Assembly (NCBI RefSeq): GCF_000092845.1
Contig: NC_014150.1
Location: 2,043,510-2,107,509 of the forward strand
From: Brachyspira murdochii DSM 12563
Lineage (GTDB): Bacteria; Spirochaetota; Brachyspiria; Brachyspirales; Brachyspiraceae
Direction: 5' to 3'
DNA: 64,000 bases
Shown: positions 11,931 to 44,426 of the stretch, one piece after another
How positions within the stretch are numbered: position 1 is the stretch's first letter
Layout: every line of letters starts with the position of its first letter
Program-made: the position numbers and the translations under genes
Notes under the pieces: generated by a model
Told to the model about the DNA's origin: nothing
What the model saw: only the letters and a program-made list of their open reading frames with translations
Database searches by the model: none

Positions 11931-12397
11931 TAATAATTCTTATCCATTTAGAATTTATAACAGTATTTTAAGCTGAAATTTTAATAATTCTTTTACAATA
12001 TTTTTTATTTATTATAGTATAATTATAAGATTAATATTTTATTTATAATAAATCTTATATTATAGACTATTTTTACTTCTTACTTATTGCAATAATATAA
12101 ATTTTTAAATAAAAAATCAACAATAAAAAATATATTAGCCTTAAATTAATAAATAACATTTATAATTTTTTTATTAAAATTTATTTTATCTTTCACTGAT
12201 TCAAAAAAATATTAGTATTTAATTATTAAATATATGCTTATTAAAAAACTTTGGGCAAGTTCTAATAGATGTTAATTAAGATGTAAGTAACAATTTAGAG
12301 TAAAAAAGATATAGGGTGGGGGGGATAATAAAAACTGATTGAAATAAAAATGATTTAAATTTATAATAAATGAAGGATTATTAAAAAGGCATGTATT

Positions 12398-12970
12398 ATG
12401 AAAATTAGTGTATTAGCAGTTATATTAGTTATTCTTTCTTTTATATTTTATAATGAAATGACAAAACATCATTCTAATATATATATTACAATAGAAGAAA
12501 GTAACAATGAAGAAAATAACATCTATAATGGAAACTATATAGTAAGTGATAATGATATTATTTTAGAAAATAGTTATGATTTTGATAACAGTATAGAAAC
12601 TAAAGAAATTAGACGCCGTTGGAATAGAGATAGATATCATTATGATGCAGATTTTGGAGAGGCTTCAGAAGATTTATTTATTAGATTGGTAATAATATTT
12701 TTTATAGGATGTGCCATTATAGGCATTTTAGCAGATATGCTTTTTTTTAAAAATTACTCTTATAGATTTTATATTATTACATTTGCTGTAATTCTTATAA
12801 TGAGTTTGGCTATTATTTATAAAATACATGGAAACATGGCTATTTTTAATATGAATGGAAGTATTGAAAGCATGATAGAGTTATTAGCTTTTTTTTCCGG
12901 CGGTATACTGTCATTTATAGCATTGAGAATTAGTAAATACCTTAGAGATAATGATAAAAATAATAAATAA
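12398..12970 (+). CDS. small N-rich membrane protein, paralog family member P2
   Basis: 190 aa with the same architecture as 7937-8416: N-terminal TM, N/E-rich linker, IRRRWNRDRY motif and three C-terminal TM helices. Confidence 0.5.
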   Translation: MKISVLAVILVILSFIFYNEMTKHHSNIYITIEESNNEENNIYNGNYIVSDNDIILENSYDFDNSIETKEIRRRWNRDRYHYDADFGEASEDLFIRLVIIFFIGCAIIGILADMLFFKNYSYRFYIITFAVILIMSLAIIYKIHGNMAIFNMNGSIESMIELLAFFSGGILSFIALRISKYLRDNDKNNK

Positions 12971-41575: not shown

Positions 41576-42160
41576 TTAGAACTTTTCTATAATATTTATA
41601 TTATTTTTATCATCTATTTCTGTATAATAACCGCATCCGTTTTGTAAAAGATATTCATAGAAGCCTAATTTCTGAGTATCAAATATGCTGAATATAGACA
41701 TAATAACACCCCCATGACTTACTACAGAAGTATAATCCATGTTATTTTTTTTCATATCTTCTATAATATATAGATATGCTTTTTCTGTTCTGCTAAAGAA
41801 ATTTTCGGAAGTTTCTCCATTAGGTACATTGCTTTTCCAATTAGTTCTAAAAAACTCTTTATAATAAGGATTATCTTTTAATTCATCATGATTTTTTCCT
41901 TCAAAATCTCCGAAACTTCTTTCTCTCAAATCATTTAACACTTCTTTTGTCATATCATTAAAGTATATATCAGCAGTTTCCAAGCATCTTTTAAGAGGAC
42001 TGCAGTATAATTTTTGAACTGGTTTATATTTTTCTATAATGCTTTTTTTGTTTATAAGAAAATTTTTTCCAGCTTCAGATAATGGAGCATCAGTAGAGCC
42101 TAGCCATCTTCCTTCAGCATTTAATTTTGTTTGCCCATGACGTATAAATAGTATTTTCAT
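41576..42160 (-). CDS. cobC: histidine phosphatase family protein, probable alpha-ribazole phosphatase
   Basis: The N-terminal RHG catalytic motif (MKILFIRHGQT). It is adjacent to cobD. Confidence 0.5.
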   Translation of the reverse strand: MKILFIRHGQTKLNAEGRWLGSTDAPLSEAGKNFLINKKSIIEKYKPVQKLYCSPLKRCLETADIYFNDMTKEVLNDLRERSFGDFEGKNHDELKDNPYYKEFFRTNWKSNVPNGETSENFFSRTEKAYLYIIEDMKKNNMDYTSVVSHGGVIMSIFSIFDTQKLGFYEYLLQNGCGYYTEIDDKNNINIIEKF

Positions 42161-42195
42161 AATGATTACTCCATTTAAAAATTAATTTGTTCAGC

Positions 42196-42238
42196 GTTTA
42201 AGTTTACATTATAATAGCAGTTTATTTTTTTTCAATAA
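42196..42238. repeat. 43-bp direct repeat, copy 1 (GTTTAAGTTTACATTATAATAGCAGTTTATTTTTTTTCAATAA)
   Basis: Identical apart from one T in the T-run to 44282-44323. The reverse complement carries TTGAAA-N16-TATAAT, a plausible cobC promoter. Confidence 0.7.
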
Positions 42239-42304
42239 CATTATTATATTATTTTTATAACTTATAAAATTATGTAAAAATAGTATGCAGGTGTATAAAT
42301 ATTA

Positions 42305-42333
42305 TTGACAAATATAGTTATAGAATATAGAAT
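42305..42333 (+). promoter_or_regulatory. sigma70 promoter TTGACA-N17-TAGAAT
   Basis: aTTGACAaatatagttatagaataTAGAATg. The predicted transcription start lies ~25 nt before the pentanucleotide array. Confidence 0.5.
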
Positions 42334-42363
42334 GTGAGAACTATAATTTGGGCATGTTTATGA

Positions 42364-42482
42364 ACAACACAACACAACACAACACAACACAACACAACAC
42401 AACACAACACAACACAACACAACACAACACAACACAACACAACACAACACAACACAACACAACACAACACAACACAACACAA
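42364..42482. repeat. perfect pentanucleotide microsatellite (ACAAC)23 plus a partial unit
   Basis: Units counted by hand from 42364 to 42478 with no interruption. The ORF-track frame 42348-42617 reads it as eight NTTQH units. Confidence 0.95.
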
Positions 42483-42642
42483 TTATCTAATCTAATATTT
42501 CTATTTTTCAATAAAATCAATATTTACTTTTTAGCTATAAAAACATATTCCCATAATGTTATCTTTATTAATATAAAAAAACACTATTTATTAATATCTT
42601 ATATGAAAAATAATTAATATAAATATTGTAGGAGAATGAATT

Positions 42643-44151
42643 ATGAAAAAACTATTATCTATTATTTTATTGATTACAAGCATTTTATCTCTATCCTGTA
42701 ATCATAATAAGTTAAACTCTTCATTAACTAGTTCTATTGGTAAAGTTGGTGAAATAACAGTTAATCCGCTTGGGGTTACACCATTATCGGCAGTTTATAC
42801 AACAGAAACTGTAAATGCTGCCCCTATAACAGTAACAGTTAAAGGTTTATATGGAGAGCCAGACATAATACACACTTATCCAGCAGGTTATGGTACTGAA
42901 TTTGAAATACATGGTATGTTTCCAGAGTCGCAAAATACTATTGAAGTAAATGATGGCGGAAGGATTATAACTAAAAATATTAATATTGGAAGTTTATCTA
43001 CAAGTGATAATACAACTATACAAAAACAGTACAATGTGGAAATTAATGAACTTTCTGAAGAAAAATATACTAATAATCCTGAACTCTATTTTATTATAAA
43101 TGCTACTTTCCCATTTCATATAGCAATATCAAAGAATGGTTATACAAGATATTTACAGAGTGGTTTAAGAGGATCAAAGTTGGTAATTGAAAATAAAAAA
43201 ATTGTATTATATCCTATGTATGATTATAAAAATACTGATTTATTAGGAAACATATTAATAAATTATCCAACTCAAGTTCATCATGATGTTATAAAGGTTA
43301 ATAACAATTATCTTTATTTATCATATTCAACTTGGGGATCAGAGGATAGATTAGTAGAAATAGATAGTTCTGGTAAAAAGTTAAGAGAATTAAGTTTTGG
43401 AAAATTAATACAAAATACTTTAGATTTAAATACTTATAAAGAAGATGAAGCAATATTCAAACAAATAGTATTTGGAGAAGATGTAAATAATATTTATGTA
43501 GATAGCAGTGGACAGAAACAAGCTGTAGATTGGTTCCATGCCAATTCCATAGTTTATGATTCTAGTACTGATACATTATATGTTTCTTCAAGAACTAGAG
43601 GAGTATTTGCTATAGATTATAGTGAATGGAAATTAATTTGGTGGATGGCTGATGATGCATTATCTTCAGGTATTGTAAATGATACTCATTTAAATAAATT
43701 AGCTTCTTTAGGTCCCTATAGAGTAAAAGGTGCAGGAAAAGATGACGGACCAAAAAATCAGCATGCTTTATTTTTGTTTGCTAATGGTAATTTAGGTATG
43801 TTTGATAATCAAGGAAATCAAGCTATTAACCCTAATGGTTCAAGATATGTTGAGTATACAATAACAGGTACTCATGGTAATTATACAGCTCAAAAAGTTT
43901 ATGAGTATAGAGATAGTTCTTTATATTCACAAATTATGTCAGATGTTGATTTTATAGGAGAAAATTATCAAAATTTATTATTAACATATTCATGGCAAAC
44001 TGCTAGGATTGTTGAAGCAGAAAAGAATACTAAGAGTGTATTATTTAGATTGGATTTACCATTTGAGACATATAGAGTAGATAAATTACCTTTGTATTAT
44101 GATGAAGGAAGGGTTTATTCAGAAGACTGCAACTTGAAAAATCCTAATTAA
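42643..44151 (+). CDS. lipoprotein, arylsulfotransferase (ASST)-like beta-propeller family
   Basis: Signal peptide plus Cys (LSLSC). QVHHDV and DWFHANSIVYDSSTDTLYVSSRTRGVFAIDYSEWKLIWW resemble ASST family motifs. An AGGAGA ribosome-binding site precedes the start. Confidence 0.45.
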   Translation: MKKLLSIILLITSILSLSCNHNKLNSSLTSSIGKVGEITVNPLGVTPLSAVYTTETVNAAPITVTVKGLYGEPDIIHTYPAGYGTEFEIHGMFPESQNTIEVNDGGRIITKNINIGSLSTSDNTTIQKQYNVEINELSEEKYTNNPELYFIINATFPFHIAISKNGYTRYLQSGLRGSKLVIENKKIVLYPMYDYKNTDLLGNILINYPTQVHHDVIKVNNNYLYLSYSTWGSEDRLVEIDSSGKKLRELSFGKLIQNTLDLNTYKEDEAIFKQIVFGEDVNNIYVDSSGQKQAVDWFHANSIVYDSSTDTLYVSSRTRGVFAIDYSEWKLIWWMADDALSSGIVNDTHLNKLASLGPYRVKGAGKDDGPKNQHALFLFANGNLGMFDNQGNQAINPNGSRYVEYTITGTHGNYTAQKVYEYRDSSLYSQIMSDVDFIGENYQNLLLTYSWQTARIVEAEKNTKSVLFRLDLPFETYRVDKLPLYYDEGRVYSEDCNLKNPN

Positions 44152-44281
44152 TTCTAATCTAACAAATGAAATAAAGTCTTGATTACAGTAATGTAGTTGA
44201 GCCTTTTTATTTCATTTTTAATATTATTGTACGATTAAATTTTTGTAATGAATATTCCATTTTTTAATTAGTTTCTTTAGT

Positions 44282-44323
44282 GTTTAAGTTTACATTATAA
44301 TAGCAGTTTATTTTTTTCAATAA
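44282..44323. repeat. 43-bp direct repeat, copy 2
   Basis: GTTTAAGTTTACATTATAATAGCAGTTTATTTTTTTCAATAA. Together with copy 1 it brackets the promoter-microsatellite-lipoprotein cassette. Confidence 0.7.
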
Positions 44324-44426
44324 AATAATGTAATTTTTTAAATTTGGTATTTTACACTTAAAATATATTATTTTTAAAAAAGTTCAATATAGGTACGGTA
44401 TGTATTAAAAATACTGTAAAAAATAA

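Follow-up and report, generated by a model that had tools for sequence, protein, structure and literature searches.

A hypervariable pentanucleotide repeat within a conserved upstream open frame: a candidate phase-variation switch before sulfotransferase-like lipoprotein genes of Brachyspira

We analyzed a stretch of 64,000 nucleotides (nt) of the chromosome of Brachyspira murdochii DSM 12563 (NC_014150.1, positions 2,043,510 to 2,107,509 of the forward strand; hereafter the window), in which a perfect pentanucleotide array, (ACAAC)23, lies between a predicted promoter and the gene of a lipoprotein related to aryl-sulfate sulfotransferases. The same arrangement precedes related genes across the genus, the number of repeat units differs between nearly clonal strains, and the array is crossed by an upstream open reading frame (uORF) that has been kept free of stop codons. 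On balance we favor, by a modest degree, the reading that the locus is a slipped-strand contingency switch of Brachyspira, which would act through the length of the uORF in the mRNA leader, by coupling or by polarity. A first-pass annotation made from the letters of the window alone had proposed a candidate phase-variation switch at this place, and the strain variation and family conservation described here support that proposal, as a candidate and in its anatomy.

Results

A perfect pentanucleotide array in front of a lipoprotein gene

The array is made up of 23 full units at 42364-42478, followed by ACAA. Tandem Repeats Finder (TRF) reported it as (ACAAC)x23.8 with 100% matches, 0 indels and a score of 238. 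Its letters are A and C only, and there is a stop codon in no sense frame. It was the sole simple sequence repeat (SSR) with a unit of 4-8 nt and at least 5 copies that TRF and a regular-expression scan returned from the 64 kilobases (kb) of the window, and the chance of a specific 115-mer of the array's composition is vanishingly small (log10 P ~ -71). The distance from the predicted -10 hexamer to the first unit is 31 nt, and that from the end of the array to the lipoprotein ATG at 42643 is 160 nt. Long uninterrupted tracts of a short unit are typical of SSR contingency loci, and this one contains 0 mismatches. The first-pass annotation had described an uninterrupted pentamer array plus ACAA, about 30 nt past a consensus promoter and 160 nt before the ATG, with an AGGAGA in front of that ATG; TRF and the raw sequence bear out the array and its spacing exactly, and the AGGAGA is seen at 42630-42635. 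The coordinates of all features are collected in Table 1.

Repeat number differs between near-clonal strains

We compared unit counts between assemblies of close relatives. Two B. pilosicoli strains that encode an identical lipoprotein (L055 and L056, protein P0035) carry 18.8 and 10.8 units, respectively; over 13.5 kb they are separated by 4 substitutions, and their sole indel is 40 nt, or 8 units, in the array. In a second pair, one member being a metagenome contig and the other a complete genome, again with an identical protein (L059 and L060, P0022), the counts were 15.8 and 16.8, and the only differences over 13.5 kb were 1 substitution and one 5-nt unit. The tract is thus polymorphic between close strains with conserved flanks, as is characteristic of SSR contingency loci, and by these comparisons the array is hypermutable. 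The first-pass annotation had held that a unit count shared by all related strains would speak against a switch, and the variation that we observed between near-identical strains is the opposite of this. A 3.4-unit array in B. hampsonii was identical in three assemblies, which is a weak control because these assemblies might be re-sequenced relatives.

The array also marks the places where assemblies break. All B. murdochii short-read contigs with the identical lipoprotein or cobC end inside the array, and many contigs of the family begin inside it. At three further loci (L018, L026 and L064, from Brachyspira sp. G79 and one B. hampsonii), runs of N occupy the expected array site 5′ of the lipoprotein gene, and many family contigs in ENA and Logan are gene-sized, at 1.7-2.2 kb. 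From the gaps at the array and the gene-sized contigs it follows that the family is systematically fragmented in public assemblies. Array loci of this kind explain breaks in short-read assemblies and the occurrence of genes on orphan contigs of about 1.8-2 kb.

An upstream frame that stays open

The uORF reads the array as (NTTQH)8, continues through 44 leader codons and stops at a TAA at 42615-42617. The end of its stop codon lies 25 nt from the lipoprotein ATG, and the stop is 12 nt 5′ of the Shine-Dalgarno sequence (SD) of that gene. We simulated changes in unit number and found that 23 units give a product of 89 amino acids (aa), 22 units one of 45 aa and 24 units one of 50 aa. The 22- and 24-unit forms end at a TAA at 42488-42490 or 42493-42495, within the TAATCTAA motif, whereas the long form arises at 20, 23 and 26 units. 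The motif is preserved in murdochii-type leaders and partly so in L024 and L028. Two earlier claims, namely that a frame at 42348-42617 holds eight NTTQH units and stops just before the lipoprotein start, and that a change of one unit leads to a TAA right past the array and toggles the ORF between 89 aa and a short form, are therefore reproduced by the ORF list and the simulation.

In all of the leaders compared, 12-14 in number, the homologous frame ("frame B", ...NKIN.YF...IKK[HY]YLL...) runs without a stop from the array to a point 1-33 nt short of the ATG, whereas the non-B frames carry 5-12 stops. Dinucleotide shuffles reached the observed open length at P = 0.007-0.058 per leader, and when 125 substitutions were placed at random on a minimum spanning tree, the frame stayed open with a product P of ~1e-5 under what is a crude model. 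In the alignment, 0 columns bear a stop in frame B versus 16 and 9 in the other two frames, many of these being lineage-specific. Differences between homologues are spread equally over the three codon positions, with no excess at the third. In pilosicoli-type leaders two frames are open, and one allele (L061) swaps between them by means of a 1-nt deletion. As judged from these alignments, the upstream frame is kept open by selection. What is conserved in them is openness and not a peptide, because frame B is free of stops, the codon positions show no bias and the pilosicoli frames are interchangeable.

The uORF stop ended 1-33 nt before the ATG in 9/9 leaders, three of which had a distance of only 1-3 nt; at several loci the stop directly follows the SD (TAA-ATT-ATG, TGA-T-ATG). 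A conserved short ORF stands between promoter and gene, as in leader-uORF systems generally, and its geometry is that of coupling; the stop positions would fit coupling to the downstream gene. A protein search with the 89-aa product gave one match, a partial hypothetical protein of B. innocens (NCBI), so annotated proteins are unusable for counting arrays.

One B. pilosicoli allele deserves separate description. In CP098749.1 (L061:5740-6000) the array has decayed to ATGAACACAATACTACAATG, and the uORF is fixed in a long hybrid frame. In the same genome, the paralogue beside the L061 gene is disrupted and adjoins an integrase-like (rve) ORF.

Promoter and leader

The promoter-like site 5′ of the array stands at the edge of the conserved region. 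Matches of at least 11/12 positions to the sigma-70 consensus numbered 18 in the window versus 7.4 +/- 2.6 in dinucleotide shuffles, an enrichment of 2.4-fold. The hexamers TTGACA and (TA)TAGAAT are preserved in B. murdochii, B. pilosicoli and one uncultured Brachyspira. Homology between the murdochii and pilosicoli clades starts only ~20 nt 5′ of the -35, and the promoter hexamers and the ATG that abuts the array (TTTATGA(A)C...) form islands of conservation between the clades, in an upstream context that is otherwise unrelated. The block AACTATA(T)AAT is mostly preserved between the clades as well. Repeats of the promoter-spacer type (hif, fetA, vlp) lie within or overlap the -35/-10 region, and this one does not. 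The earlier idea that a uORF is involved thus finds backing in the conserved ATG, in the promoter hexamers and in a stop-free frame in every leader.

Between the array and the gene, leader identity among paralogues is 70-96%, against 62-74% for their proteins, and TTAGGAG is preserved in nearly all leaders. This conservation was not accompanied by structure. Folding of the leader showed no excess over shuffles (z = +0.84), RNAalifold found 0 consensus pairs in 12 aligned leaders, an Rfam search with the leader gave no match, and no terminator-like site was found in it. The array itself has a folding energy of 0 kcal/mol and no secondary structure. The repeat is therefore not part of a stable, processed RNA hairpin of the hmw1A type, and the terminator/antiterminator hairpins or sequestered SD of an attenuation system are likewise missing from the leader. 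Since there is no Rfam match, excess structure, consensus structure or terminator, we ruled out riboswitch, attenuator-hairpin and hmw-type hairpin models. Sequestration of the SD by a UUCCC block was also rejected; the pairing occurs in the minimum-energy fold, yet L024, L028 and the pilosicoli leaders do not preserve it. With no RNA structure, terminator or Rfam family to account for it, the conservation of the leader is not otherwise explained.

In one B. murdochii allele (L062:5960-6000), the ribosome-binding region is tandemly duplicated (TAGGAGAATAAATAATAGGAGAATAAATTATG) before the lipoprotein ATG. A scan of metagenomes with the leader pattern AAAAAYACTAT...ATATAAATAT...AGG returned 26 matches, all of them chance matches, arrayless and none Brachyspira-like.

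The module across the genus

A scan of one genome per species yielded 11 related loci in Brachyspira, and longer contigs and complete genomes added more. The module, consisting of promoter, ATG, (ACAAC)n, leader, SD and gene, precedes at least 15 genes of the family, in B. murdochii, B. innocens (3 paralogues), B. hampsonii, B. pilosicoli, B. intermedia and two uncultured Brachyspira. At every locus with an assembled 5′ region, the array lies 136-174 nt before the ATG. An array thus occupies a conserved place before many paralogues and orthologues across the genus, which extends the observation that the first-pass annotation had made on a single gene. Complete arrays had 3.4, 5.4, 8.8, 10.8, 13.8, 14.4, 14.4, 15.8, 16.8, 16.8, 18.8 and 23.8 units. 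In one B. pilosicoli strain, two tandem genes each have their own promoter, array and leader. An uncultured Brachyspira (L024:1-25) has a variant unit, (ACAGC)n, that has been homogenized across the array and is stop-free in every frame. In a search of 324 kb of Brachyspira DNA, pentamer SSRs of at least 4 units occurred only as arrays at the 5′ ends of such genes.

The array is absent from distant paralogues (about 50% identity or less). In B. intermedia, a 64% identical paralogue (L065:4900-5003) has no promoter, array or uORF and retains only the SD-proximal part of the leader; it is located inside a polysaccharide/glycosylation cluster with radical SAM, glycosyltransferase and epimerase genes. 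In B. innocens (L019:4665-4700), a different repeat, a perfect (ATTT)9, is found ~45 nt 5′ of a lipoprotein-like ORF (MKLICIFMIILTLFNLSAC...), downstream of the pyrophosphatase gene. This ORF may be a second SSR-controlled gene; the (ATTT)9 is absent from the corresponding place in the window.

The lipoprotein gene and its surroundings

The product of the gene that the array would control matches Arylsulfotrans (PF05935; 1.2e-32, 113.8 bits versus a cut-off of 24.2) and Arylsulfotran_N (PF17425, the N-terminal immunoglobulin-like domain) in Pfam, and is 100% identical to the NCBI entry "aryl-sulfate sulfotransferase [Brachyspira murdochii]". Its start, MKKLLSIILLITSILSLSC, we read as a probable lipoprotein signal of the spirochaete type, and a location at the surface would be in keeping with this. 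In an alignment to E. coli AssT (PDB 3ELQ), the equivalents of H356, R374 and H436 are retained; these are the residues that we take to be catalytic in AssT. Because they are retained, the lipoprotein may be an active enzyme.

The body of the gene is mosaic. Between the window strain and GCA_036997745.1, the leader, the gene's initial 250 nt and all sequence from 44213 on show 100% identity, versus only 39-90% across 42883-44212, and a third strain was alike. When compared with L063 and L062, the flanks of the mosaic body were 99-100% identical. A divergent stretch between identical flanks points to recombinational allele replacement, in which the gene body was exchanged in an otherwise clonal background. 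The lipoprotein gene thus appears to behave like a diversifying gene, which fits a contingency gene.

The cassette of promoter, array and gene is bracketed by direct repeats (families D1 and D4, with 86% and 79% identity and a spacing of 2086 nt). The right copy holds a decayed cobC start, which suggests a past tandem duplication or insertion of the cassette. The 3′ ends of contigs L001-L007 stop at the right copy, and it is this bracketing repeat that accounts for short-read contigs ending at 44239-44339. The flanking genes in the window are a divergent gene for a cobC-like phosphatase and a gene for a membrane pyrophosphatase; the pyrophosphatase neighbor is also found in other B. murdochii strains, in B. 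hampsonii and in B. pilosicoli. The window also contains a single G/C homopolymer of 7 or more letters, an intergenic G7 tract at 12318-12324, about 15 nt 5′ of a promoter-like TTGAAA-N17-TATAAT (12339-12367) and 75 nt before an ORF starting at 12398.

Table 1. Features of the array locus, in positions of the window.
Feature	Position	Strand	Basis
Direct repeat, left copy, ~100 nt, includes the start of the divergent cobC-like gene	42153-42254	.	repeat search
Sigma-70-type promoter-like site, TTGACA-N17-TAGAAT	42305-42333	+	11/12 positions match; 5′ edge of the conserved module
Second -10-like hexamer TATAAT, a possible alternative -10 (transcript start then ~42354)	42342-42347	+	sequence reading; use predicted
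uORF, 89 aa, TTG start at 42348, in-frame ATGs at 42354 and 42360 (the latter conserved)	42348-42617	+	ORF list, simulation
Perfect pentanucleotide array, (ACAAC)23 + ACAA	42364-42482	+	raw sequence, TRF
AU-rich leader, 160 nt, 14% G+C, with conserved blocks ATATAAAAAAAYACTAT and ATATAAATAT	42483-42642	+	alignment of paralogues
TAATCTAA motif abutting the 3′ end of the array; TAA stops in both non-uORF frames	42488-42495	+	sequence; 22/24-unit simulation
Shine-Dalgarno sequence AGGAGA of the lipoprotein gene	42630-42635	+	sequence
Aryl-sulfate sulfotransferase-like lipoprotein gene, 502 aa, presumed controlled gene	42643-44151	+	Pfam, sequence comparison
Direct repeat, right copy, decayed cobC start and its upstream region	44239-44339	.	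repeat search

Discussion

Structurally, as far as its sequence tells, the locus is of the kind that defines SSR contingency loci: a long, perfect and polymorphic tract beside an apparently diversifying gene of a putative envelope type. The mechanism that we infer would work as follows. Transcription would begin at the conserved promoter 5′ of the array, and ribosomes would initiate at the ATG beside it, where an array that is made of A and C only, structureless and stop-free may favor initiation, as has been reported for CA-rich downstream sequences. Replication slippage would then add or remove 5-nt units, with each step bringing the next of the three frames into use. In the long state, one frame (two in pilosicoli-type leaders) would carry ribosomes through the AU-rich leader to a stop 1-33 nt short of the lipoprotein ATG, at the SD or just 5′ of it; in the short state, ribosomes would halt a few nt past the array, ~150 nt upstream of the gene. 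The long state would raise expression of the lipoprotein, either by termination-reinitiation and ribosome delivery or by shielding of the leader from Rho or RNases, and the short state would lower it. The window strain would thus have high expression at 20, 23 and 26 units and low expression otherwise. That the promoter is active and the uORF translated, which way and how strongly the lipoprotein responds, and how the two are coupled are all predictions drawn from this anatomy. A more specific form of the idea, to which we give somewhat less credence and which we offer tentatively, is that the switch is dedicated and uORF-coupled, that an open frame with no meaning as a peptide turns slippage into on/off control, and that the module has spread genus-wide with the recombining family.

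Several observations weigh against such a switch. The long and short uORF states are distributed among the complete arrays about as chance would have it; the long state occurs in 2/4 murdochii-type and in 7/8 pilosicoli-type leaders (in the latter, two of three frames are open in the leaders examined, and the frames of L066 are not counted), L022 was placed in the short-uORF frame by a script, and a significant excess of long-uORF states was sought among the assemblies and not found. Both members of both near-clonal pairs are in a long frame. The simulation of the open frame is crude in its substitution model. Transcription start at the promoter is a prediction only, and at a loose threshold promoter-like hexamers are common in DNA this AT-rich (23 observed versus 26 expected). 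Inspection of the sequence showed no convincing SD before the uORF ATG. The lipoprotein gene, on the other hand, comes with a strong AGGAGA of its own in a leader that lacks structure, so its translation could be independent of the state of the uORF, and the pilosicoli-type leaders have an extended -10-like TGATATAAA near the SD, which could permit transcription that is independent of the array. In the opposite direction, the L061 allele, with its decayed array, and the L020 allele, whose array is very short, are both fixed in the long-uORF frame, and this is suggestive but weak evidence in favor of a switch.

We considered four other explanations. The array might act as a rheostat irrespective of frame, the length of the 5′ untranslated region (5′-UTR) setting mRNA stability, processing, translation efficiency or the binding of a factor or small RNA. 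The place of the array between predicted promoter and gene, the wide and continuous range of unit counts and the strong SD of the gene itself would all suit a rheostat, and SSRs in 5′-UTRs have been documented to act in this way, as in the leaders of Haemophilus influenzae hmw1A (PMC12721329) and Helicobacter pylori tlpB (PMC8295292). It leaves unexplained, however, the ATG that abuts the array and a frame that remains stop-free over ~125 substitutions, and the array and leader are structureless, unlike the hmw hairpin; we regard it as unlikely. Alternatively, the true promoter could lie in the leader 3′ of the array, and the array would then set the distance or helical phase to an upstream element. 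A unit of 5 bp corresponds to roughly half a turn of the helix, and Neisseria nadA and Mycoplasma gallisepticum vlhA act as spacers of this type. The leader offers conserved AT-rich blocks and -10-like hexamers (CATAAT/TATAAT near 42550, and TATAAA at 42618, with a TGn extension in B. pilosicoli), and promoter prediction is unreliable at 14% G+C. Yet when aligned and inspected by eye the internal hexamers lack a usable -35, the first of them is lost in L024 and L028 and no hexamer is preserved in every leader; the promoter match that scores best and is most conserved stands 5′ of the array, and the open frame would again have no explanation. We therefore keep an internal promoter as a rival of distinctly low probability.

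A neutral microsatellite, unstable but without effect on expression and spread by duplication and gene conversion of the 5′ region, would account for a 5′ region more conserved than the gene body, for the direct repeats that bracket the cassette and for uORF states that look random among assemblies. Neutral tracts decay by interruptions, however, whereas long perfect tracts persist here in many diverged paralogues and species, with only L061 decayed; homogenization of the variant unit ACAGC has produced a new perfect array, conservation extends to the open frame, the ATG and the promoter, and 324 kb of Brachyspira DNA contain no other SSR of this kind. Neutrality thus seems improbable to us. 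Least credible is a small-protein gene, whose functional peptide would have (NTTQH)n as its variable N-terminus, end in a hydrophobic tail and itself be the target of phase variation. The ORF is indeed conserved and open, and NCBI annotates the partial hypothetical protein of B. innocens; but only that one database protein matches, the ORF has no signal peptide, differences fall equally on the three codon positions, and two different frames are open in pilosicoli-type leaders, between which one allele switches. We rejected a functional peptide on the missing codon-position bias and the interchangeable open frames, and consider this reading very improbable. Taken together, the open-frame signal disfavors the rheostat, the internal promoter and neutrality, and the lack of a codon-position signal disfavors the small protein.

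A slipped-strand switch acting through the uORF would have relatives among known systems, none of which it copies. In the opa genes of Neisseria, (CTCTT)n is located inside the structural gene, in the part that codes for the signal peptide. The Brachyspira locus is similar to opa in having a pentanucleotide SSR with a frame shift per unit, and in belonging to a multigene family, in Brachyspira of putative envelope proteins, in which each copy has its own tract and gene bodies recombine; it differs in that the repeat is in a separate uORF that ends before the lipoprotein SD and ATG. There are stops in all three frames between array and ATG, which sets the locus apart from intragenic frameshifting of the opa type. 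The nearest functional analogues are lic1 of Haemophilus influenzae, with (CAAT)n in licA, and type III mod-res systems, where a frameshift in an upstream ORF is polar on the genes downstream. In these as here, an upstream frameshift would alter downstream expression on a shared transcript, but their upstream ORF is a real enzyme gene, whereas that of Brachyspira is short and seemingly kept only as an open frame.

Other relatives have intergenic SSRs 5′ of genes for surface proteins. In Moraxella catarrhalis uspA2, (AGAT)n is in the 5′-UTR and acts independently of frame, with no uORF, and in M. gallisepticum vlhA, (GAA)n is upstream of the promoter and acts on transcription, again with no uORF; vlhA resembles the Brachyspira genes further in being a large lipoprotein family with one tract per member. 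Treponema pallidum, which has poly-G homopolymers in the promoter regions upstream of tpr genes with an effect on transcription, is a spirochaete precedent for SSR phase variation of envelope protein genes, and differs in its homopolymers, in acting on transcription and in genus and gene family. Closest in position are hmw1A and hmw2A of H. influenzae, where (ATCTTTC)n in the transcribed 5′-UTR is a length rheostat that works via a long RNA hairpin cut by RNase III (PMC12721329). They share with the Brachyspira genes an SSR between promoter (a predicted one in Brachyspira) and start codon, an envelope or adhesin gene (in Brachyspira a putative envelope gene) with allelic diversity, a tract per paralogue and a variable count, the hmw counts varying between and within strains and the Brachyspira counts being compared between assemblies. 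In contrast to hmw, the Brachyspira repeat and leader have no predicted structure and have a conserved reading frame through them. In Helicobacter pylori tlpB, a homopolymeric G-repeat in the leader is targeted by the small RNA RepG (PMC8295292). The likeness lies in a variable SSR in the mRNA leader that acts post-transcriptionally, as proposed for Brachyspira, and the difference in the trans-acting small RNA; no such partner is known for the Brachyspira array, for which no search was made.

We found no description of this locus, or of SSR phase variation in the genus, in the literature on Brachyspira, whose coverage in our search was incomplete, so that absence is not proof. The first-pass annotation had likewise supposed such a repeat to be undescribed in this lineage, in agreement with the searchable literature. 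If the switch is real, it would be the first SSR phase variation known in Brachyspira, and its design would be unlike the intragenic, promoter-spacer and structured-5′-UTR classes. It would then represent a fourth way for repeats to control genes, by means of an upstream frame that is maintained but meaningless.

The genus includes important gut pathogens and commensals of pigs, poultry and humans. A switch that operates family-wide would imply that the cell envelope or sulfotransferase activity varies stochastically, and variation of this kind bears on the evasion of immunity and phage, on the choice of vaccine antigens and on strain typing.

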